DNA of 19,859 nucleotides from positions 1 through 19,859 of the forward strand of contig JAEOTB010000015.1 in assembly GCA_016840065.1 (NCBI GenBank). The letters are read 5' to 3'. Below, piece after piece: positions 2,543 through 19,859 of this stretch; position 1 is the stretch's first letter; every line of letters begins with the position of its first letter. This DNA is from Candidatus Hermodarchaeota archaeon (lineage in GTDB: Archaea > Asgardarchaeota > Hermodarchaeia > Hermodarchaeales > Hermodarchaeaceae). The translations under genes and the position numbers were made by a program. The notes beneath the pieces were generated by a model. That model made no database searches. It was not told where the DNA came from and was given only the letters and a program-made list of their open reading frames with translations.

Positions 2543-2674
2543 GAAAACGCACAGAAAATTGAAACAAGCTCTTAGTGAAGGCTGCTCCTTAGTTGGGTTG
2601 TCTCCTTCTCACTCCTCTTTTCCCATTTAGCTATAAGGAAGTCCTTTTATCTTGTCTAGCCTGCGATAGTGTTA

Positions 2675-3754
2675 ATGACAAAGGATTCAGAGGACCGCCT
2701 TGGTAGACTTGAGCAAATCGTAGAGGCTGCTGTTAAAGCGAAGGACTGGAAGGATGTGGATGGTTTCAGGGTTGCCTTGAGGGAGCTGAGAGAAATCGGC
2801 AGCCCCACCGCAGTGGATTTCCTTGCTCGAATGCTGGAGGGTAAATCGAGAAGCATCAAGATTAGGGTACTGGACACCCTCTGGAGAATCAACGACCCCC
2901 GCGCCTTGAGTCTTCTAAAGCAAACACTGGAGACTAGCGAGAACGAAGGGATACGTCGAATGGCGGCACGAGGACTCATCCGAACTAGAGGAGCTGACGC
3001 CCTCGACTTGGTGGCTAAGGCACACCGCGAAGGACGGATTCTCTGGGATACTTTCATGGTCAAGTACATAACCGAGTTAGAAGGGGAAGAGTTCCGCGTC
3101 TTCGATATCTTGGTAGAACTCCTGCAGAGTGACAAGATGTACGCCTGGGGGAGTGCTATCTGGGGACTCGGTGCCCTCGGTGACAGAAGAGCCATACCCA
3201 TCATCGAGGAATTGATGCGGTCAAGGACGCTATTGAAAACTGGGGACTGGTACACACACTACTCAGCGGCAGACGCCCTGATCAAGCTCGGGGTCCAAAT
3301 CCCCAAGGAACGACGCCAAACACTATTCCCAAGGCATGGGGAGCTCGCACCTCAAGATGGCGTGACGGTGTACCAGGGCGAGAACCTCCCAGAAGAAGCC
3401 CTCGTCGCCATCAGTGCTGGGGAGACCTTTCAGTTCCGTGCATTGTGGTCTGAAGAACGCATGCATGAGGCCTGCCATGAATGCCGTGAATGCTGGGAAA
3501 AGGAGGAATACTTCGACCCCCCAACCTTCGACTCAGCAGCGGGACCAACGAATACGCTGGAGCTCCTCTTCGTCGTCCTTGCTAGCGCTGAAGCAGAAGC
3601 AACTAGTAAAGCTCAAAAAGCGGCTCACGCCTATCTAAACCAAAGATACTGTCTCCGACCACTGCAAGCCCCTAAGATAGAACAAGTGACCAATATGACC
3701 GCATCCGATGTTCTCCAACTACTTAGAGGAACCAAATGCTACCTCGTGATGTAG
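2675..3754 (+). CDS. HEAT/PBS-lyase-like repeat protein with an uncharacterised C-terminal domain
   Basis: Repeats such as ALRELREIGSPTAVDFLARML, VLDTLWRINDPRALSLLKQTL, AIWGLGALGDRRAIPIIEELM. TTTTAT at 2645-2650 favours a leaderless start at ATG 2675 (GTG 2669 is the alternative). Confidence 0.85.
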   Translation: MTKDSEDRLGRLEQIVEAAVKAKDWKDVDGFRVALRELREIGSPTAVDFLARMLEGKSRSIKIRVLDTLWRINDPRALSLLKQTLETSENEGIRRMAARGLIRTRGADALDLVAKAHREGRILWDTFMVKYITELEGEEFRVFDILVELLQSDKMYAWGSAIWGLGALGDRRAIPIIEELMRSRTLLKTGDWYTHYSAADALIKLGVQIPKERRQTLFPRHGELAPQDGVTVYQGENLPEEALVAISAGETFQFRALWSEERMHEACHECRECWEKEEYFDPPTFDSAAGPTNTLELLFVVLASAEAEATSKAQKAAHAYLNQRYCLRPLQAPKIEQVTNMTASDVLQLLRGTKCYLVM

Positions 3755-7481: not shown

Positions 7482-9293
7482 ATGGTGACAACCTTGAAAT
7501 GGACTCTAAATGATTCCCGGCTAGTCTATGGAGTAGCCCGAAACGACCTCCACTTCCTCGACATCACACGCAAAGGCGACCTATGCGTCACCCTAGAAGG
7601 CACCAGCATCACCCTCAAAGAAATCATCCGACGCGTAGGCGCAAAAATCCGAGAACAGGGCTACACCCGAGCACCCAGCTTCACCCTCAGGATCCCCCAG
7701 CTCCTCACCACCCAGGTCGAGAAGATCTCAGGCATCTTCAAGAGGATAATCAAGGAGCAAAAATACGGAGGCAAGTTCCGCGCCGTCTACCCCATGAAGG
7801 TTAACCCCCGCTACCCCGCCGTCAAGGCCATCATCAACTCCAGCAAAGATTACGGCCTCGAAGTCGGCACCAAATCCGAACTCTACATCGTCCTCAAGAT
7901 GTGTGGTAAAGACAAGAGCCGGCTCATCATGTGCAACGGCGTCAAGGACGAAGAATACATCGAAATCGTCAGGCAAGCCCTCGAAGAAGGCTACAAGGTC
8001 TGGATCTCCATCGAATCCATCAAGGAGGCACAAATCGCCCTCGAACGTATCCCCAAGGAAAAACTCCAACTCGCTTTCCGTGTCAAACCTTACACCTCCA
8101 TCATCAGCCACTGGGGGGCTTCGGCGGGACGTCACTCGAAGTTCGGACTCGCCATTCATGACATCATCAACCTCGTTGACGTTTTGAAAGAAGCAAAGGC
8201 TGAATCCACTGTCGTGGCGATTCATGGCCACCCTGGCAGCCAGGTCCTCGGGAACATCCTCTCCTTCGGCGAATACATGGCTCGAGTCTACATCCACCTC
8301 CGAGAACTCGGCCTCGACCAGCTCACCGTCGTCAACATGGGCGGGGGACTCCCCATCAACTACGACAACCACCTCGACCCCGATGTCACCGAATCCTACA
8401 TTCTAGCTCTAGTCAAAGCCCTCAAAGACACAATTGGGAACAAATACCCACACCCCGACATTATGACCGAAGGCGGGCGCTGCCTCACCGCCCTCTATGC
8501 CCTTCTCGTAATACGCACCTTCGACCTCCGCCATATCTTCCCCGACCCCCTCCCTGGCGAAGCCCAACAAGCCAGAACCATCATCTCCAACATGCTCGAA
8601 GACACCGCTGACCCCCTTTCCGTCCTTGCGGCTTGGCGCAGTTGGCAGAAGACTCGCGTCCTCTACAAGGAGCTCCCCGATCTCCTCGAATACGAGCGAC
8701 TTTCTGGCACCATCAAACAACAGATTCGCCGCAAATTTGTCAAGAGCCCCAACTACGAAGCCTATACTGGCGAATCCGTCGCAAAGGACCTCCTGCGGGC
8801 AGAGCATATCCTCCTCGGTAACTTCAGCGTCTTCAACGGCGCCTGCGACCATGTCCTCGTTGGACAATACTTCCCTGTCATCCCCATCAGTCACCTCCAC
8901 ACGCAACCAGAAACTCTGGTGCGCCTGACGGATATCACCTGCGACTCAGATGGGGAGATTTCCACCTATCATCCACCCATCAGCGCTAAGTCCCTCTTCA
9001 CCCAAGATGGATTCCCTCTAACGACTACAAACCGGCAGACCTGGAAGGGATTCCCCATCGGTGACTTGAAATCCGCCCCTGACAACTACCTCATCATCGG
9101 ATTAGTAGGAGCCTATCAGGACATCATCGAAATGGATCACAATCTCGTTGGTGACCTACCCGATGTAGAACTCACCTTACAGAGTGATGGGCTCTGGGAT
9201 GTCAAATGGGTCGGTGCTGCCCAAACTATCCAAGACCTAGTTCGTGAAGTGGGTTTCACGCTACCCCAGCTAGACGACCCATATATCGACTGA
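7482..9293 (+). CDS. speA: Biosynthetic PLP-dependent arginine decarboxylase (fold type III)
   Basis: YPMKVN (PLP lysine), GLEVGTKSEL, CNGVKDEEYI, SKFGL, HxHxGSQ, NMGGGL, TEGGR, NFSVF, DITCDSDG, GAYQDI..HNL; 603 aa. Confidence 0.9.
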   Translation: MVTTLKWTLNDSRLVYGVARNDLHFLDITRKGDLCVTLEGTSITLKEIIRRVGAKIREQGYTRAPSFTLRIPQLLTTQVEKISGIFKRIIKEQKYGGKFRAVYPMKVNPRYPAVKAIINSSKDYGLEVGTKSELYIVLKMCGKDKSRLIMCNGVKDEEYIEIVRQALEEGYKVWISIESIKEAQIALERIPKEKLQLAFRVKPYTSIISHWGASAGRHSKFGLAIHDIINLVDVLKEAKAESTVVAIHGHPGSQVLGNILSFGEYMARVYIHLRELGLDQLTVVNMGGGLPINYDNHLDPDVTESYILALVKALKDTIGNKYPHPDIMTEGGRCLTALYALLVIRTFDLRHIFPDPLPGEAQQARTIISNMLEDTADPLSVLAAWRSWQKTRVLYKELPDLLEYERLSGTIKQQIRRKFVKSPNYEAYTGESVAKDLLRAEHILLGNFSVFNGACDHVLVGQYFPVIPISHLHTQPETLVRLTDITCDSDGEISTYHPPISAKSLFTQDGFPLTTTNRQTWKGFPIGDLKSAPDNYLIIGLVGAYQDIIEMDHNLVGDLPDVELTLQSDGLWDVKWVGAAQTIQDLVREVGFTLPQLDDPYID

Positions 9294-9667: not shown

Positions 9668-11572
9668 TTAGGTTCTACGGTGTTTGTATAGAACAACACC
9701 AGTCATAACAACGAGTGTTACGCATATCCCAGTTATTGTTAGTACAATAATCAGAGGGGCGGCTGCTCGCGTCGATACCACTACCATGATATCAGTAGAA
9801 AGAGTGTTCCCAAACGGGTCTGCAACACTTATCCTCAATCCATATGAGCCAAGGGACAGAACACCTAGACTCTCAAGGTACCCAGTACTGTTTATGGCGA
9901 AATCGGTTGTATCGTTTACCGCCCAAGAAGCAATTCCGGAAGGATCCATGGCCTCCAGCTGTAAGCCTAGGGCCTGCCCATAAAGGAGGAACTGGAAGGT
10001 AGGTTCTGTTATCCAAGTCGGGGGCTGGTTGTCGATGACTACGGTTACCTCTGAATTGATGGTGAACCGTTTACCTGAACCATTAAGCAGCATAGTGAGT
10101 GTGATGTTGTGGGGTCCTGCAGTCAATCCAGTCAATGTGAAATTGGTATCTAATCCCACATACTTGATGTAGCCATCAACGAAGAGGTCGTAGCGGTTGA
10201 TGCCTGGATCAGGGGCGACTCCTGTCCATTCCAGGTTATAGTCTGGGCCCCGTATTGTCGCTCCATCAGGAAGGTTGTCAAAGGAGACATAGACCCGATG
10301 AATTGAGATGTTGTACGAGTTACCGATTGCTCCCGCTACAACCATAGCGAACTTGTAGGGTTCAGACATGTAGGTATCTACTTCTCCTAGGCCGATGTCA
10401 AAGGCTGCATCAACCATGGTGAGGGATTCTGAGTGGGCGTCTATAACCTTCACAATTCCATGGCCTGACCCGATGCTCTCATCGATGTGGGTCAATAAGA
10501 CTCCACCATCTGGTAGGTATGAATCGTACCCGACCTTCTGTCGCACTTCAACCAGGAAGTACTCAGAGCTAGTTACAGGTATCTTGAGTAAGTGCACACC
10601 CGATGTGGCATACTCCAAGGGGTCGACAATCACACTATCCTCAATTGGCACCTCGACTATCTGTGCGCTAGAGACATAGCCAAGTTGCATCTTCGACCAA
10701 CCCATCATATGAGCAGGGCTCTCACCTAACCCGAAGGGTCCATTCCACGACCCAGATCCCATCAACCCAAAATACCCAATGAAATCCTCCTCACCATCAT
10801 AATCATAGAGATCAGGTAGACCCAGGTCATGACCATACTCGTGTGCAAGAACCCCGATATTAGCCTGATATCCTCCTATGCTCTCTTCGGGAGTAACCGA
10901 GGCACGACTGATGGGCTTCTCATCAGTGTAAATTGTGAACCCCGACCAAGAACAGGACCAATAATCTCGCCAATCATGACTGAGTTCCTGTCCCTGTCCA
11001 GCATGTATGATTGTGACATCATCATAGTCGGAATAGTCCACGTACGGGTCTGCAGCCTCGATAGCATCCCTAACCAAGGAGAACTTGGGCTGGCTGGGAT
11101 AGCCTGTGCCGAACACATACTGGTTTCGTGGGTTTCCCAGCTGGAGCCACATAGAAGTTGTGTTGCCTGTGACTCGCTGCAGCCCAAAGGAGTTCTCGTT
11201 GTAGTACTCGTCAAGAGTATCAATAGCACCAGAGGCGACCTCCTCAGGAGTAAAGGTATGGTTCTTGTCAGTAAATTCTACGAGAATGATAAGAAGCGTC
11301 CGAGAACCTATGGCAGCCTTTGAAGAAGAGGATGGCTGAAAAGGGGGGCGAACAACCAAACCATAGGGAGAAACGCAAGGAGAGTATGAAATCTTCTGTC
11401 TATAGGTTTCAGAAGCGGTTGGTGGAGCATCCTCTAGAATCACAGAGGGTTCAGAGCTGAAGCGAGCCTCCCGTCTACTATCAAATAAGGGTATCACCAT
11501 TAGGATGGCGAGAATGGTGATGAGAAGAACCTTCTCCAGCTTTGTGTTCCCTGGATTGGAAAGGAATACCAT
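9668..11572 (-). CDS. Surface-anchored M6 family (immune inhibitor A-like) zinc metalloprotease
   Basis: LIILVEFTD, YYNENSFG, IIHAGQGQE, HEYGHDLGLPDLYD, LMGSGSW, EYFLVEVRQ..GYD..LP..GVLLTHIDES. N-terminal signal, C-terminal beta-rich Ig-like domains, then TM + KHRRT; 8 N-x-S/T sequons. Confidence 0.93.
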   Translation of the reverse strand: MVFLSNPGNTKLEKVLLITILAILMVIPLFDSRREARFSSEPSVILEDAPPTASETYRQKISYSPCVSPYGLVVRPPFQPSSSSKAAIGSRTLLIILVEFTDKNHTFTPEEVASGAIDTLDEYYNENSFGLQRVTGNTTSMWLQLGNPRNQYVFGTGYPSQPKFSLVRDAIEAADPYVDYSDYDDVTIIHAGQGQELSHDWRDYWSCSWSGFTIYTDEKPISRASVTPEESIGGYQANIGVLAHEYGHDLGLPDLYDYDGEEDFIGYFGLMGSGSWNGPFGLGESPAHMMGWSKMQLGYVSSAQIVEVPIEDSVIVDPLEYATSGVHLLKIPVTSSEYFLVEVRQKVGYDSYLPDGGVLLTHIDESIGSGHGIVKVIDAHSESLTMVDAAFDIGLGEVDTYMSEPYKFAMVVAGAIGNSYNISIHRVYVSFDNLPDGATIRGPDYNLEWTGVAPDPGINRYDLFVDGYIKYVGLDTNFTLTGLTAGPHNITLTMLLNGSGKRFTINSEVTVVIDNQPPTWITEPTFQFLLYGQALGLQLEAMDPSGIASWAVNDTTDFAINSTGYLESLGVLSLGSYGLRISVADPFGNTLSTDIMVVVSTRAAAPLIIVLTITGICVTLVVMTGVVLYKHRRT

Positions 11573-11655: not shown

Positions 11656-12852
11656 CTATTCCGTGGAATTTGACCTGAGTTGGGGGATTTTATCGAGGAT
11701 GTTCTTTAGGATGTACGCCTCCACCTGCTCCCGAAAATCTAATCCACCTATCCTTGTTATTTCGGCTAGCTCCTGAAGTACAACGTCCTTCGGTGAACGT
11801 TTCCATGGTAATCGCTTGTCCAGATCAAAGATAACCAGTTGTCCTATCTCTTCTAACGCTTTCCCCTGCTTGAGCAAATTCTCAACGACTATTCCAATCT
11901 TCTTCTTCAGGTAATCTTTTCTAAACTCAAGATCCCGTCTAGCAGCCAGCCAAACATATAGCTCTAGGAAATCGATGGGTGACCGAAGCTCGGGACCACT
12001 CCTAGGACTTTTCGGAAAGGCGTGGTGAATATACCCGTACTTGGGTTTCTCGTCTATTGAAATAGTCGGAGGAGGAAGTGACTCCACAAGTATCTCTTGA
12101 GCCGTTAGCGCTGATACCTCTTCTAGTGGGATATTGGCTTCCCCAATAACTTGGTGTAGATTATCGAGGACCTTCCTAAGGAGATGTGATTCTTCGGATT
12201 TTGATAGGAACTTCTCATAGCGTCGGAATTTAATTAATAATGAGTCGCGCAATCCGTGAATTAGTTCATCTACGGAATCAAGGTTGGTGTAGCGCAACCC
12301 ACATGCAATGACTCTTATTGCATCGGCGATAGTGCCCTCATCGTGATCCGCTAACCACCTGGTAATAAGAGATTCGAAGTATCCTTCACCGATTTTCCGA
12401 CGCTGCCTTATCACTGCCATTATGTTCTCTGTCGCTGGCTCGACTTCGTCTTTGACAACCTGTTGCAGGTTCTCAAGGCTATAGTTCTCGGTTTGTAGCT
12501 CTTTTCCTAAGCTATCATAAAGATACTCAATCCACTGCCCTTCTATGATCGAAACGCTCCTGATATAGGAGTCAACATCGGGAACTGGATTCCCTCGCTC
12601 TTCTCGACGAGTGAACTCGCTCATTATGATTGAGCAACATCGCTCAACATCAGTAATTGCTCCGTCCAACATGACACGATAAACTACTCTAGCCATTTCG
12701 ATGTGGACGCCGCACTGCTCTGCAATCGTTGATGCAGCTTCATCCGAGACTCGACGAACCTTCTCTTCAAAACTACCATGGGTCTCCTCAAATTCACTGG
12801 CAATACGTCGGCTTAATCTTCGTACCTCATCATCGTCGAAAAGCCGGCCCAT
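11656..12852 (-). CDS. Hypothetical 398-aa soluble helical protein
   Basis: Long ORF of charged helical composition. Start reassigned to ATG 12852 (MGRLFDDDE) with SD AGGTGGT at 12859-12865; the 49-codon upstream extension is AT-rich and looks intergenic. Confidence 0.8.
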   Translation of the reverse strand: MGRLFDDDEVRRLSRRIASEFEETHGSFEEKVRRVSDEAASTIAEQCGVHIEMARVVYRVMLDGAITDVERCCSIIMSEFTRREERGNPVPDVDSYIRSVSIIEGQWIEYLYDSLGKELQTENYSLENLQQVVKDEVEPATENIMAVIRQRRKIGEGYFESLITRWLADHDEGTIADAIRVIACGLRYTNLDSVDELIHGLRDSLLIKFRRYEKFLSKSEESHLLRKVLDNLHQVIGEANIPLEEVSALTAQEILVESLPPPTISIDEKPKYGYIHHAFPKSPRSGPELRSPIDFLELYVWLAARRDLEFRKDYLKKKIGIVVENLLKQGKALEEIGQLVIFDLDKRLPWKRSPKDVVLQELAEITRIGGLDFREQVEAYILKNILDKIPQLRSNSTE

Positions 12853-13077
12853 GTTGATACCACCTAGTATTATCTTGAGGGCTATGATAAACAGTCCTAG
12901 AAACACTCTGGTAACCCAACTATGGTCCGTATCTAAATAAGTCTTGTTAGTGATAAAAAGATAATACTTGATTAGGATGATCGGAATCCTGGGATTCACT
13001 GGAGTTAGGTGTATCCACTACCGGACCGGTTTACCATGGGAAATTTCTTACACCAAGGATTGGTGTTCTAACAGTGT

Positions 13078-15355: not shown

Positions 15356-18097
15356 ATGGTCGGATTTAGCATTCGAAATCGTATCCTTGCAGCCTTCCTC
15401 ATACTACTTCTCATCCCAACCGCCTTCCTTGTATTCTTTAACGTTGGGTCGATAGTACAATTATCTAATACCAACGCGCAACAGGCTTCAGATGCCCTGC
15501 TGGCTGAAGAGCTCGACTACCTCCAGAGCATAGCCAATAACGAATCATCTCGCATCGATGAGTTCTTCGCCCAAATCGAAGCCGAGGTCACTATGCTCGA
15601 TCTCTACGCAGAGGGGCTCTTTAACGACGAAATAAACGTAACACCATATGTAAGTTACTGGTGGGATGATGCAGAGGAGTTCGCCGAGACCGGTCGAACA
15701 ATACCTGGTCAGTATTATGACCCTGATTATGATTCTGACATATCCTTCGATTGTAGCTGCTATTATCTACCTCGAGACAATTATCCTGGGGTAGACCCCT
15801 TTGACTGGAGCAGCGAAGAAGAAGCCCTCCTCAACTACTCTTCGAACCTAGACTACATGTTCCAGAACCTCCATGAGGCCAATCCAAACTATATCTGGAT
15901 ATACATGGCCTTTGCTGGAGGCCTCTCCCTCTTCCGCAACTACCCCTATGATACAATGGAGTGGACCCAGTATGAGGGCGACGGTAATCCCGCAACCACC
16001 TCAGACGATTGGGACCCACAAACCTGGGATTTCTACACAGGACCCGCGGGGACAACCGATAGCACCGTATTCACTAGCCCCTACTGGGACCCTGTAGGTT
16101 ACCTGATGTCCTGTGGTCGTCCTTCACGGTGGTCCAACAATAGCTTGATTGGTGTCGTGAGTGTAGACATAACCATTTCCCAATTAAATGACAGCGTCAT
16201 CGATATTGACGTTCTAGACAACGGCTATGCATTCCTCATCGACAATTCTGGTAACTCGATAGTACACCCCGCTCAGGGCGACCAGTCAATCGGGATCACC
16301 GCTCTTGAAATGGCAGGAACATCTGCCGCAGAAACAAGCACTTTCAACAGTATAGTATCTACTATGGCAGGAGGTAGTACTGGGTGGAGTACCTACCACA
16401 AGAACGGTCAAAAATGGTACATAGCTTACGCCCCCGTTCCCACCACCGAATATTCATTGGCTGTTGTGGTTCCCGAGGAGGATATCATTGGTGCAGTGTT
16501 GGCATTACAGAACTCGATTCTCACCCAGAGCAACACACAAATCATCCTTCTCATCGCGATACTAATTGCCGCCTTCGTTATCCTTTTCGCTATCAGCATC
16601 ACAATCTCCAACCGAATCACACGACCCATCAAGGAACTCACAACACTAACCAGCTTGATGGCAGAAGGCGACCTCTCCCGTGAACTCCGGGGCGACGCCA
16701 GCGAGATGGTTCCAGAAATTGGGACGCTCCACCAAGCCTTTAGCAACCTATTGACGAGCCTAAGGTTTGGAAATACCGCGTATTATGGTGGCGACCTTGA
16801 TAGGGCGTTTGCGAACTACACCAAGGCGTTGGAGCTCTTCAGGACCACGAAGAACCAACGAGGAATTGCCTTGGCAAAGAACAACCTAGGCAACATCTAC
16901 CGGGCTTGGGGCGATGCATCAGCAGCTGAACGCCACTACCGAGAAGCCATCACCATCGGTGAGCGCATCGACGATGTTCAAGGTCTCGCCTCCCGATATA
17001 ACAACCTGGCTCTCTTGAGGATGGACCAGGGCAAGAACAAGGAAGCCTTGAAACTCCTACAGAAAGCCCTGGGCTACGACGAGAAGGCAAAGAACGATCG
17101 CGGCAAAGTACTACGGCTAGCCAACATCGGACTCGTCCATCTTCAGATGAGACATAAAACCACAGCAAGAGAGCATTTCGAGAAATCTCTGGCAATCGCT
17201 GAACGTATCAAATACGACAGGGGCATCGCCTATGCCAAACTCCACTTGGGAACTCTCCTGATTAAAGAGAAAGACTACATAGAGGCACAGTCCCAGCTTG
17301 ACTCGGCTCTCACCATCGCTAAGGACCTTGTTGACGTATCGCTTGTCGCCCAGTGTCTGGACAGGCTGACTGAGGTCCAAAGGGAACTAGGCTTTACAGA
17401 GACCGCTGACCGTTACGCAGCCCTCGTCACAGGACTCAGACAGAGAATGATCAGTCGAAAGGTCGTCCTCTTCTGTATCGACTATTCAGGATCAATGGGT
17501 GGACCCCGTATACGCACCGCAATCCGAGGAGCTAGAACCCTCCTGGACAAGCAGGTCAACCCACAGGACGATGTAGGAATCGTCACCTTCAGTGACCGAA
17601 GCCATGTCGCCCTTAAACTAACAAGAGTCGAAACTGGGAAAGACCAGATAGTGAGCGCACTTGAGAGCCTGATGTATCCACAGGGCAACACAGCCTTCTA
17701 CGATGCACTAGGTGATGCAATGAAGCTCCTAGCCGAGGTGAAGGGCAGCGAACAACGCTGGCTAATCGCATTGACCGATGGCCTCGACAACTCCAGCCGC
17801 GACCACACAATCCAAGTCACACCTGGAAAAGAGATAGGAACAAGAGGCGACAAGTCGGTTCAGGGAGTCATTCACAGGAGTCTACTGAACGTGAACCTGA
17901 TCATCATCGCGGTCGGTGACGAGCTTCGACGTGTCAAGTCAGGGCTCGAAAGACTTTGCACAGAATCGCCCAGAGGAAAATACATCGGTATCTCAGATCG
18001 ACGCGACACCGAAAAAGCCATCACCGACGCCTTCCGAAAGGTGCGGGAGATTCTGGCACAAATCGACGTGGAGGGAATCCGCTTCGACCGAGAGTGA
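15356..18097 (+). CDS. Membrane receptor: TM - dCache - TM - HAMP - TPR repeats - vWA
   Basis: TM1; dCache motifs (WIYMAF, NYP, FTSPYWD, IGVVSVDI, GYAFLIDNSG..IVHP, YIAYAPV..TEYSLAVVVP); TM2; HAMP (ITRPIKELT...EGDLS...EIGTLHQAF); 5-6 TPRs of about 40 aa (NNLGNIY, YNNLAL, ANIGLVH, LHLGTL); vWA with IDYSGSM, GNTAFYDAL, LIALTDG. Confidence 0.92.
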   Translation: MVGFSIRNRILAAFLILLLIPTAFLVFFNVGSIVQLSNTNAQQASDALLAEELDYLQSIANNESSRIDEFFAQIEAEVTMLDLYAEGLFNDEINVTPYVSYWWDDAEEFAETGRTIPGQYYDPDYDSDISFDCSCYYLPRDNYPGVDPFDWSSEEEALLNYSSNLDYMFQNLHEANPNYIWIYMAFAGGLSLFRNYPYDTMEWTQYEGDGNPATTSDDWDPQTWDFYTGPAGTTDSTVFTSPYWDPVGYLMSCGRPSRWSNNSLIGVVSVDITISQLNDSVIDIDVLDNGYAFLIDNSGNSIVHPAQGDQSIGITALEMAGTSAAETSTFNSIVSTMAGGSTGWSTYHKNGQKWYIAYAPVPTTEYSLAVVVPEEDIIGAVLALQNSILTQSNTQIILLIAILIAAFVILFAISITISNRITRPIKELTTLTSLMAEGDLSRELRGDASEMVPEIGTLHQAFSNLLTSLRFGNTAYYGGDLDRAFANYTKALELFRTTKNQRGIALAKNNLGNIYRAWGDASAAERHYREAITIGERIDDVQGLASRYNNLALLRMDQGKNKEALKLLQKALGYDEKAKNDRGKVLRLANIGLVHLQMRHKTTAREHFEKSLAIAERIKYDRGIAYAKLHLGTLLIKEKDYIEAQSQLDSALTIAKDLVDVSLVAQCLDRLTEVQRELGFTETADRYAALVTGLRQRMISRKVVLFCIDYSGSMGGPRIRTAIRGARTLLDKQVNPQDDVGIVTFSDRSHVALKLTRVETGKDQIVSALESLMYPQGNTAFYDALGDAMKLLAEVKGSEQRWLIALTDGLDNSSRDHTIQVTPGKEIGTRGDKSVQGVIHRSLLNVNLIIIAVGDELRRVKSGLERLCTESPRGKYIGISDRRDTEKAITDAFRKVREILAQIDVEGIRFDRE

Positions 18098-18108: not shown

Positions 18109-19859
18109 ATGGCAAGAAGTATACGCAGTAACGTTTTGCTCAGCTTCATCATAATCACCATCGTATCGATGGGGGTTATTGGCGGCATAAGCATCTACTT
18201 CACAAACGCAATCGGCCAAAGCACCACGGTTCAAAGCTCCGATGCGCTGAACAATCAGATTCAGGAGAACCTGAATGGGAGCTCTGATCTAATCGCAGGA
18301 ATTATCCGAGAAAAATTCTCCAGCGCAGAAGCCATGGTGCTTGCGATGGCAAATGAACTCGAAGCCCTCTTCAACAACTCACGCTACGGATTCAGAGAAA
18401 GTTATTATGACTTCTGCTTCGAATACAACTACTCAGATCCAAATCTAGCACCCGCAGACACTCATTATGACTCTGCTTATGATGTGTACCTCTCCTGGAG
18501 CTACGCCAGTTACTACTTCAGAGACTCTGTTTACGGAAATTACACTCTGTACGACAACAACCCCAACCTGAACGATACCATCGAACGAGTGGCAAATATG
18601 GATTATATTTTCCAGAATATCCATGACACTGCACCTGAGTTTCGCTGGCTCTACATTGCCTTTGCTGGGTTTGACTTGTTCATCAATTATCCTGGGAGTA
18701 TCGTCGCTGGTACCGACGCTGAACGGGATGCTGAATCCTACCTACCCACCACACAACCATGGTATCTAGATGTAGTGGCTGGTAACGGTGACATCGTCTT
18801 CACCGAACCCTATTTTGACGAGATAGACGGTGTTCCACTCATCACCATTGGTCGTGCAGTATACTACCCCAATGGAACCCTGATGGGTACAATATGTGGG
18901 GATATTTCAATTCAAGACCTTGTTACACAAGTTGAGACCTTCGAAATCCTTCAAACGGGATACGCCGCCCTCATCCAAACATCTGGCCTCGTCGTCGCCC
19001 ACCCAGAAGCAGGAGCAACTCTACCACAAATCGAAGATGTGGAGGTCAACACCGCAGACAGCTCATCTGCACTATCAACGTCACAAATTACTACGATAAC
19101 TTCAGGAACATCAGGGCTAATCACATACACCAGAAATGGGCAGGACCGGTACCTAGCCTATAGACCTGTAGGAAAAGGCGATTATCTCTGTCTAGTAATC
19201 GTCCCGGTGGCTGAAGCCATCGCTGCCATCGCTCCCTTGCAACAAAACATCTTACTAGCAAGTCAGACGACCACGTTGCAAGTACTCCTAATCATCGTCT
19301 TGATAGCAGTTGCAGCCCTCGGCATAGGATTGGTCATCGCGAACAGCATCATGAACCCCATCACCAGACTAACGAAGCTCGCGGTAAGCCTCTCCACCGA
19401 ACGAGCACGCCAAGACATCATGTCAGGACTAGACCAGGAACTCAAGGACCTCGGAGGAACAGGAGAAATCGGCGACCTAACCCGAGCCTTCCGCGACATG
19501 GTCGACTCGGTCCGAGAAGAAGAACACCAGCTAGCAACCGGCAGCAAACTCTGCCCCAACTGCCAATCCCCCATCGGTCCACGCTGGAAGACCTGCATCT
19601 ACTGTGGCCACGACCTAGAAGCACCAGCCCCAGTCGCCAGCGAAACCGAACGAGTCCGCAGACTCATCGCACGCGGCAAGTGGGAAGAAGCCGCAAGGCT
19701 TGGAGCACCCGCCGTTTCACCCCTCGCCAAGGCACTCACCGAAGGTAACCCCGACGAACGAAGAGGTGCAGCTGACGCCCTTGGAAAACTAGGCGATGCA
19801 GCAGTAGAGCCCTTATCCCGTGCGCTCAAAGACGACGACGAATACGTAAGATGGCGATC
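18109..19859 (+). CDS. Second membrane receptor, 3'-truncated: TM - dCache - TM - HAMP - zinc ribbon - HEAT repeats (not in ORF track)
   Basis: Manual translation is open for 583 codons to the window end: [21 protein letters not shown]..., MDYIFQNIH...[46 protein letters not shown]2, [10 protein letters not shown]...[22 protein letters not shown], then [42 protein letters not shown]. Confidence 0.92.

Follow-up and report, generated by a model that had tools for sequence, protein, structure and literature searches.

Gene A, a gene of an Asgard archaeon, encodes a membrane receptor in which a first transmembrane segment (TM1), a dCache_1 sensor domain, a second transmembrane segment (TM2), a HAMP domain, six tetratricopeptide repeats (TPRs) and a von Willebrand factor type A (vWA) domain follow one another, and the protein is probably the output-bearing subunit of a two-subunit, enzyme-free transmembrane receptor that signals by protein docking. 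The gene resides on a contig of 19,859 bp, which was analysed in its entire length (hereafter the window) and which belongs to an Asgard archaeal genome bin of 84% completeness. The closest named record was that of a 'Candidatus Hermodarchaeota' metagenome-assembled genome, showing 89% identity over the C-terminal half. An earlier reading of the DNA alone (hereafter the original prediction) had described a HAMP domain fused without linker into a TPR solenoid capped by a cytoplasmic vWA domain with intact MIDAS (metal ion-dependent adhesion site), and all sequence strings quoted there were located in Gene A at the positions given for them, whereby HQAFSNLLTSLRFGNTAYYGGDLDRAFANYTKAL corresponds to residues 459-492 (nucleotides 16730-16831), DYSGS to residues 709-713, GNTAF to residues 777-781 and LTDG to residues 806-809. 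What was overlooked at that time are the partner genes, i.e., a paralogous receptor (gene B), a beta-propeller protein and a SpeA-like decarboxylase, which are most important for the mechanism. Architecture, topology pattern, conservation, gene linkage and phyletic spread of Gene A are established in the following.

Domain architecture and topology of Gene A

Pfam searches with the Gene A protein returned dCache_1 (2.5e-14), TPR_12 (4.4e-23), VWA_2 (5.8e-15) and VWA (6.3e-12), and a scan with NCBIfam models yielded no equivalog. Two hydrophobic segments, and only two, were identified in the protein (Table 1). Across 47 Asgard relatives, the N-terminus carries a net charge of +2.2, each of the outer ends one of -1.3 and the stretch behind TM2 one of +1.1, and the density of N-glycosylation sequons (N-x-S/T) in the dCache part was found to exceed that in the arm 2.3-fold (44 of the 47 relatives). 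The two segments, the positive-inside distribution of charges and the density of sequons taken together place the dCache domain outside and the HAMP-TPR-vWA part inside, hence the vWA domain is predicted to be cytoplasmic, as had been claimed before.

The score of the sensor against PF02743 lies above the cut-off of 45 bits, identifying it as a dCache_1 domain, for which 3LIB is the closest solved sequence (1.2e-12) and for which Foldseek returned Mlp24/37, PctA and 3LI9/3LIB as structural matches. As reportedly laid out by Gumerov and colleagues in 2022, amino-acid sensors of the dCache_1AA type share the motif Y..R.WY..Y..D, the arginine of which is said to bind the carboxylate of the ligand. 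This carboxylate-binding arginine is absent from Gene A, which reads WDPQTWDFY (gene B reads LPTTQPWY there), hence the dCache_1AA motif is not present. The R.WY part was found to be kept in some Asgard relatives and in nearly all aligned giant-virus and chytrid rows, mostly as PRCR.WY, and pocket residues differ lineage by lineage across the relatives. Next to the amino-acid motif, an amine motif (dCache_1AM) has been defined, which comprises R103, D133, W155, F188, Y189, M215, S217 and D235 in PctD numbering, and 3LIB was classified therein as an AM-motif (amine) domain (PMC10589655). When this motif is compared with Gene A, the F/Y-Y, the hydrophobic, the Ser and the Asp positions align, and equivalents of W155 and of R103/D133 could not be placed. 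As a decarboxylase gene is linked to the pair of genes A and B (see below), the ligand of the dCache domain may, as a reasonable guess, be an amine, for example agmatine, or a compound related to it.

The junction of HAMP domain and TPR solenoid

Within Gene A, the HAMP domain (PF00672) was detected with 5e-4 and 20.8 bits, which is below the cut-off of 25 bits. The scan of the whole genome gave 24.8 bits, and 26.5 bits when frame neighbours were considered, a value which the tool counts as above the cut-off. More distant relatives of Gene A possess a precomputed PF00672 match, and AlphaFold2, which was run with the alignment of the 47 relatives, modelled residues 417-470 as helix, loop and helix; the segment is hence assigned to the HAMP family, being marginal by score in Gene A alone.

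The solenoid following the HAMP domain belongs to the TPR_12 type and consists of six 40-residue repeats in register, to which twelve AlphaFold2 helices correspond (five to six repeats had been predicted). As the repeats are in register from residue 458, the second amphipathic helix (AS2) of the HAMP domain (residues 453-470) is at the same time helix A of TPR repeat 1; the fusion without linker that had been read from the DNA is hence even more intimate, the HAMP helix being itself part of the solenoid. In this register R470 aligns with the asparagine column N510, N550 and N590, and G472-N473 aligns with G512-N513, whereby the G-N triplets of LGN type at residues 472-473 and 512-513 were found to be invariant or nearly so in alignments of relatives. 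The spacings from E454 to R470 (16 residues) and from R470 to N513 (43 residues) are the same in 47 of 47 relatives, and residues 471-497 make up the most conserved segment of Gene A, with a mean top-residue frequency of 0.71 as compared to 0.48-0.52 for the dCache domain, the remaining TPR repeats and the vWA domain. Conservation of the solenoid declines from repeat 1 to repeat 6. In the AlphaFold2 model, AS2 is followed by a kink at F471-G472-N473 and then by eleven helices which extend to residue 698. Structural comparison of the TPR part by Foldseek identified LGN and BtubC as matches (TM-scores of 0.5-0.76 normalised to the target, 20-23% identity), and for LGN it was reported that the asparagine of its Leu-Gly-Asn triplets binds to the backbone of bound peptides (PMC3438535). 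Considering the rigid conserved junction, the mechanical relay from the dCache domain to the MIDAS, which the original prediction had put forward, appears plausible.

The vWA domain, its MIDAS and the C-terminal tail

In the full-length AlphaFold2 model a vWA fold comprises residues 702-901 and the tail (residues 902-913) is disordered; when modelled alone, the vWA domain reached a predicted local distance difference test score (pLDDT) of 84 and a predicted template modelling score (pTM) of 0.83. Foldseek matched the domain (~1e-10) to CMG2, TFIIH p44, integrin I domains, alpha2delta, BatB and ArnB (rank 38), and the best sequence match was CLCA1. An assignment to one particular vWA subfamily was considered and rejected, as the fold search matches many MIDAS-bearing vWA domains about equally. 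All MIDAS residues, i.e., D709, S711, S713, T779 and D808, are present, as had been noted before, and were found to be invariant in 47 Asgard sequences, in 18 more diverse sequences and in 23 giant-virus, chytrid and metagenomic sequences. Gene A hence possesses a vWA domain with a complete MIDAS, predicted from these residues to bind metal.

In integrin I domains, open and closed states of the MIDAS are coupled to a shift of the C-terminal helix. The tail that follows the last vWA helix in Gene A is acidic and conserved, a finding which is no more than suggestive of an integrin-type gating. Its consensus was derived as (I/L/V)-(D/N/E)-V-E-(G/S)-(F/L/I), with E906 being invariant in the Asgard rows, and in the giant-virus and chytrid proteins (e.g., P0404, P0373 and P0414) the motif, there NVESL, forms the extreme C-terminus. 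The V-E-G/S-hydrophobic tail is therefore a candidate internal ligand, either for the MIDAS or for the TPR groove.

Gene B, the paired receptor

Gene B begins 11 nucleotides past Gene A and shares 31% identity with it over residues 4-470, i.e., over sensor and HAMP domain. Behind its HAMP domain a zinc ribbon (CPNC...CIYCG) and HEAT repeats follow, a tail which is confined to the family of the window genome, and in most lineages B stops just after the HAMP domain (476-521 residues). Across Asgard families, a B-type gene follows A on the same strand by ~3-70 nucleotides in every locus with enough downstream DNA, and in the window genome A and B represent the sole dCache_1 and the sole HAMP matches. 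Within one Loki-like family two forms of the pair occur: wherever A is long, the B behind it is long as well (6 of 6 loci), and a short A lacking the dCache domain (~575 residues) is always accompanied by a B which likewise lacks it (~150 residues, two transmembrane segments and HAMP; 10 of 10 loci). In the short-form loci (L084-L086, L093-L098 and L103), the order of genes is a protein of ~244 residues with six transmembrane segments, short A, short B and propeller. Joint loss of the dCache domain from A and B is what would be expected if both act as one unit.

Pfam and NCBIfam scans identified no histidine kinase, methyl-accepting chemotaxis protein (MCP), GGDEF/EAL, cyclase or PP2C domain in A or B, and among the more than 150 family members listed with their Pfam content no enzymatic output domain was found.

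Distribution and phylogeny

At a threshold of E ≤ 1e-30, a HAMP-TPR-vWA match was obtained in 117 of 400 Asgard genomes, representing 35 of 85 genera and mostly in single copy. Identity to Gene A decreases with distance from 89% in the same genus and 64% in the same family to 35-48% in other families. The named members stem from Thor-, Loki-, Heimdall-, Hod- and Hermodarchaeota and are annotated merely as 'tetratricopeptide repeat protein', 'cache domain-containing protein' or similar. A profile search of 1.84 billion representatives revealed ~45 full-length family members matched in a single stretch; this search was flooded by giant multi-TPR proteins and is uninformative on weaker or eukaryotic members. 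The ESM Atlas search gave no usable match.

Initial protein searches listed Asgard members only. A scan of IMG/VR with a vWA profile led to two contigs from giant-virus bins (L112 and L113), which encode dCache-TPR-vWA proteins of 883 and 964 residues, respectively, and on each of which the A-type gene adjoins a B-type dCache gene (L112:2245-6612 and L113:1809-6615). On L112 a DNA photolyase adjoins these genes. Near the pair, neither a propeller nor a decarboxylase gene was found on L112 and L113, and the open reading frames downstream in these loci were ruled out as propeller homologues. Viral hits of the HAMP-TPR-vWA profile were rejected by Pfam and tblastn, being a TPR-glycosyltransferase (L109) or generic vWA proteins (L104-L111), and a viral scan with a Thor protein as query found nothing. 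When the L112 protein was used as query, eukaryotic members were brought up, the same architecture being identified in Mimivirus LCMiAC02 as well as in 13 or more chytrid fungi, among them Polyrhizophydium, Obelidium (on a 1.1-Mb contig), Chytriomyces, Rhizophlyctis, Cladochytrium, Zopfochytrium and Phlyctochytrium. With the protein from Obelidium mucronatum, Gene A aligns from end to end (residues 10-908 to 15-948, E 2e-49, 25% identity), whereby ...NLLT.(L/V)RFGN.AYY...NY...NNLGN(I/V)YR, DxSGSM, GxTAFYDA, ALTDG and the C-terminal VE are kept. In a mixed alignment of 24 rows the MIDAS is invariant, and G472, N473, Y476, Y488 and E906 of the tail are conserved to ≥90%. A Podochytrium sp. protein (P0408, 1122 residues) joins an EF-hand/centrin part to dCache-TPR-vWA; this may be a genuine fusion that senses calcium, or else the gene model was merged.

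None of the result lists contained a member from ciliates or bacteria. The layout which the original prediction had mentioned for protist membrane proteins, with ciliates in mind, does exist in full-length counterparts, which were found in chytrid fungi and giant-virus bins, but not in ciliates. With the vWA domain predicted inside, the MIDAS invariant and eukaryotic but no bacterial members found, none of the observations that could have spoken against that prediction was made.

Trees of the quick type, which contain long branches, were calculated from the full-length proteins (63 rows) and from the common sensor-HAMP part with B as outgroup. In the former, Asgard proteins are separated from giant-virus, chytrid and metagenomic ones by a single branch with a support of 100 in the Shimodaira-Hasegawa-like approximate likelihood ratio test (SH-aLRT), and the chytrids form a single clade. 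In the latter, the giant-virus B-type genes cluster with Asgard B (SH-aLRT 94), therefore the pair would have travelled together, and the giant-virus/chytrid A clade stands within Asgard A beside P0034 (support 95). This Asgard metagenome protein of 899 residues, which branches beside the giant-virus and chytrid proteins in both trees, carries the pocket YDPRCRAWY and is the only such Asgard member seen. The approximately unbiased test did not reject monophyly of Asgard A (p 0.094), hence nesting inside Asgard is favoured, though not significantly. Of the archaea-eukaryote link that had been proposed, the real and collinear homologues endure; their range is however patchy, comprising one fungal phylum and giant viruses, and the trees do not settle the direction. 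With the narrow eukaryotic range found here, vertical descent with inheritance at eukaryogenesis is in no better agreement than a transfer, for which giant viruses may have been the route.

Gene neighbourhood

Neighbouring genes were clustered across 23 mapped loci of Asgard relatives. A soluble beta-propeller/zinc-ribbon protein without transmembrane segment is encoded near the pair in 16 of these loci, and a gene for a SpeA-like arginine decarboxylase, the most often linked gene apart from the propeller, in 15. Three arrangements of both were found: in Thor-type loci, propeller, A, B and decarboxylase form one tight operon, and in the others the decarboxylase gene is located divergently upstream or some kilobases apart. 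A zinc ribbon similar to the one which elsewhere resides in the propeller protein is found in the tail of B in the window genome. Apart from the decarboxylase, no kinase, AAA+ ATPase or other enzyme was identified as consistently linked in the window and the 23 loci. An open reading frame coding for 447 residues at 11656-12999 (minus strand) was considered as propeller partner and rejected. Its product possesses one N-terminal hydrophobic segment and no family match; it follows upon a homologue of M6 (immune inhibitor A-like) metallopeptidases of 634 residues (9668-11572, minus strand).

In the Thor-type loci L078-L083, a gene of the histone-deacetylase family is located divergently beside the propeller gene (e.g., L079:5147-6241, minus strand), possibly coding for an acetylpolyamine amidohydrolase, and a PP-loop ATPase gene follows the decarboxylase gene. 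The contig of Gene A itself further encodes stand-alone TPR and HEAT-repeat proteins (737-1270 and 2669-3754, both plus strand).

Table 1. Positions of Gene A, its predicted parts and the partner genes in the window
Feature	Position	Strand	Basis
Gene A, dCache-HAMP-TPR-vWA receptor, 913 residues	15356..18097	+	open reading frame, translation, Pfam, AlphaFold2 (mean pLDDT 84)
TM1, residues ~8-30, N-terminus predicted inside	15377..15445	+	hydropathy, R7/R9 ahead, positive-inside pattern in 47 relatives
dCache_1 sensor, residues ~32-373, predicted extracellular	15449..16474	+	Pfam PF02743 (53.8 bits), Foldseek, 3LIB
TM2, residues ~392-416, predicted continuous helix with first amphipathic HAMP helix (AS1)	16529..16603	+	hydropathy, AlphaFold2 helix 374-436
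HAMP, residues 417-470: AS1 with invariant P424, connector, AS2 from invariant E454	16604..16765	+	Pfam, invariant columns
Six 40-residue TPR repeats, residues 458-697	16727..17446	+	repeat register, conservation, AlphaFold2 helices, Foldseek (LGN, BtubC)
vWA domain, residues 699-901, Rossmann-like beta-alpha fold	17450..18058	+	Pfam VWA_2/VWA, AlphaFold2, Foldseek
MIDAS motif 1, D709-x-S711-x-S713	17480..17494	+	invariant in three alignments
MIDAS Thr, T779	17690..17692	+	invariant in three alignments
MIDAS Asp, D808 in LTDG-x-DN-x-S	17777..17779	+	invariant in three alignments
C-terminal tail, predicted disordered, with motif I-D-V-E-G-I	18059..18094	+	pLDDT under 50, conservation
Gene B, paralogous dCache-HAMP receptor with zinc-ribbon and HEAT tail	18109..19859 (cut by contig end)	+	Pfam
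SpeA-like pyridoxal phosphate-dependent arginine decarboxylase	7482..9293	+	NCBIfam NF003763 (7e-100, 335 bits, cut-off 369 bits)

Proposed mechanism and alternative explanations

Beyond these observations we infer an assembly of A with B, a relay from HAMP to TPR, MIDAS-dependent docking, its clients and the type of ligand. The suggested mechanism assumes that the dCache_1 domain binds a small molecule outside and that A joins its co-transcribed paralogue B, most likely via the sensor, transmembrane and HAMP parts. Binding of the ligand would then switch the HAMP bundle and, as AS2 belongs to TPR repeat 1, this switch would re-shape the Asn-lined groove of repeats 1-2 and re-orient the vWA domain. 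As a consequence, the altered groove or MIDAS metal would change which cytosolic partner is held, whereby the V-E-G/S-hydrophobic tail might be displaced as candidate internal ligand. Rather than by phosphorylation or a second messenger, the receptor would hence act by docking or releasing proteins. As clients, the beta-propeller/zinc-ribbon protein linked to the pair by operon and the SpeA-like arginine decarboxylase are candidates; through the latter, a signal from an amine or amino acid outside would be coupled to the synthesis of agmatine and polyamines.

Several findings weigh against this mechanism. The HAMP score of Gene A is marginal, the kink which AlphaFold2 places at FGN 471-473 indicates that coupling is perhaps less rigid than through an unbroken helix, and the full-length model reached a pTM of just 0.52. 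MIDAS residues can be kept for structural reasons, and A and B may have lost the dCache domain in one and the same evolutionary event. Within the window the decarboxylase gene is found 6 kb upstream of the pair with unrelated opposite-strand genes in between, a propeller homologue was not found in the window's own genome, and in several Asgard families as well as in the giant-virus loci both the propeller and the SpeA-like gene are missing near the pair.

That A and B lack an enzymatic output, and that one lineage drops the dCache domain in both while keeping HAMP-TPR-vWA in A, so that the sensor is dispensable, would also be in line with A being a static membrane anchor or scaffold, the arm of which tethers a cytosolic complex permanently and the dCache domain of which serves assembly or surface contact. 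We consider this unlikely, as HAMP modules serve to convert signals and as the stretch where HAMP meets the TPR solenoid is the most conserved and a length-invariant part of the protein. The short forms, moreover, gain a conserved upstream gene with six transmembrane segments, suggesting that the input was replaced rather than being absent, and a pocket variation which is patterned by lineage is typical of ligand retuning.

Canonical HAMP receptors are homodimers. Considering this and the zinc-ribbon and HEAT tail that B possesses here, A and B could be independent homodimeric receptors which share an operon; A alone would then signal through the TPR-vWA arm, and B would act as decoy or sense separately by means of a partner of its own. 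This explanation is improbable in view of the strict adjacency of A and B in Asgard families and on giant-virus contigs, of the joint loss of the dCache domain and of the fact that B ends right after HAMP in most lineages.

Combinations of vWA and TPR domains are encountered repeatedly in prokaryotic conflict systems that depend on NTP, and together with the occurrence of relatives in giant-virus bins they could point to a module for conflict or defence. This is very unlikely, as genomes mostly contain a single copy, as identity falls with taxonomic distance and as the stable set of neighbours includes a housekeeping-type decarboxylase and no NTPase or effector domain. That the vWA domain serves as adaptor of a MoxR-type AAA+ chaperone in the manner of BatA/BatB or ChlD, with the receptor delivering or regulating metal insertion or remodelling, can hardly be credited, as its weak sequence and fold similarity to the vWA domains of BchD/ChlD and BatB is no closer than that to any other vWA domain, and as no AAA+ gene is present in the window or as conserved neighbour cluster in the 23 loci (no genome-wide search for MoxR was made), hence Gene A was assigned neither to the BatA/BatB-MoxR nor to the ChlD type.

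A more far-reaching version of the docking mechanism, tentative and as a whole of low probability, would regard A-B as a new heteromeric receptor class common to Asgard archaea, giant viruses and a eukaryotic lineage, which upon an outside ligand captures or releases cytosolic proteins in a metal-dependent (MIDAS) manner via a HAMP helix within the TPR solenoid, with the acidic tail as built-in competitor, and which gates agmatine and polyamine synthesis in Asgard archaea. If true, an integrin-like logic of propeller and MIDAS would operate on the inner side of the membrane.

Literature searches found no description of the A family, and the system seems to represent a mode of transmembrane signalling that has not been described, its novelty lying in the new, non-enzymatic output of a HAMP receptor and in the subunit paired with it. 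To our knowledge, prokaryotic HAMP receptors known so far have an enzyme or an MCP module at their end; a TPR-vWA docking arm with an output-less twin would add to these a signalling by protein recruitment, which is usually tied to eukaryotic receptors. Occurring widely among Asgard archaea, the family is one of a small number of membrane proteins with several domains whose layout and junction are the same in Asgard archaea, giant viruses and a eukaryotic phylum, therefore gene flow among these groups may be traced with it. A concrete physiological output that is testable is provided by the link to a SpeA-type arginine decarboxylase, and with its soluble arm, defined MIDAS residues and a dCache part that can be screened for ligands the system is amenable to biochemistry.

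Comparison with known systems

Integrin I domains, CMG2/TEM8, CLCA1 and alpha2delta/CACHD1 share with Gene A the fold and the full DxSxS...T...D MIDAS, and alpha2delta/CACHD1 likewise combine dCache and vWA domains. These MIDAS vWA domains are however extracellular, whereas that of Gene A is predicted to be cytoplasmic, and in alpha2delta the vWA and dCache domains are interleaved on one side of the membrane, while in Gene A TM2, HAMP and TPR lie in between. The contrast in domain order and membrane side which the original prediction had drawn is hence upheld, and the structural match of alpha2delta to Gene A was found to be domain-wise only (TM-score 0.27, root-mean-square deviation ~10 Å), which does not place Gene A in that family. 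A cytoplasmic archaeal vWA regulator is known from Sulfolobus, where ArnA and ArnB interact and the partner binds through its zinc-ribbon domain (PMC12852372). Like Gene A, ArnB possesses a cytoplasmic archaeal vWA domain with MIDAS, which in ArnB acts as a module for regulatory docking, and zinc ribbons are found here in the propeller protein or in the tail of B; unlike Gene A, in which the vWA domain ends a receptor and to which no FHA or kinase gene is linked, ArnB is soluble and carries a beta-sandwich and a phosphorylated C-terminal domain.

In Pseudomonas azotoformans, an output-less Cache_heme-HAMP receptor was reported to be read by an operon-encoded Ser/Thr kinase (bioRxiv 10.64898/2026.05.25.727664). 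This receptor resembles B, and the proposed A-B unit, in having no enzymatic output of its own and in binding a helical-repeat partner that is encoded adjacently; its partner is however a soluble kinase with phosphorylation as readout, whereas in A-B the role of the partner would fall to a second receptor, which bears the TPR-vWA arm, and the conserved gene set contains no kinase. With PctA/B/C, Mlp24/37 and the Methanosarcina mazei histidine-kinase sensor 3LIB, Gene A has the order of TM1 (with its N-terminus inside), dCache_1, TM2 and HAMP in common, but receptors of this type terminate in a module of the MCP, kinase, cyclase or phosphatase kind, where Gene A ends in TPR-vWA. The TPRs of LGN/Pins and those of the kinesin-light-chain type (BtubC) finally consist, like those of Gene A, of ~40-residue TPR_12 repeats with Leu/Phe-Gly-Asn triplets in helix A; unlike in LGN and BtubC, the first helix of the Gene A solenoid is the HAMP helix of a membrane receptor.

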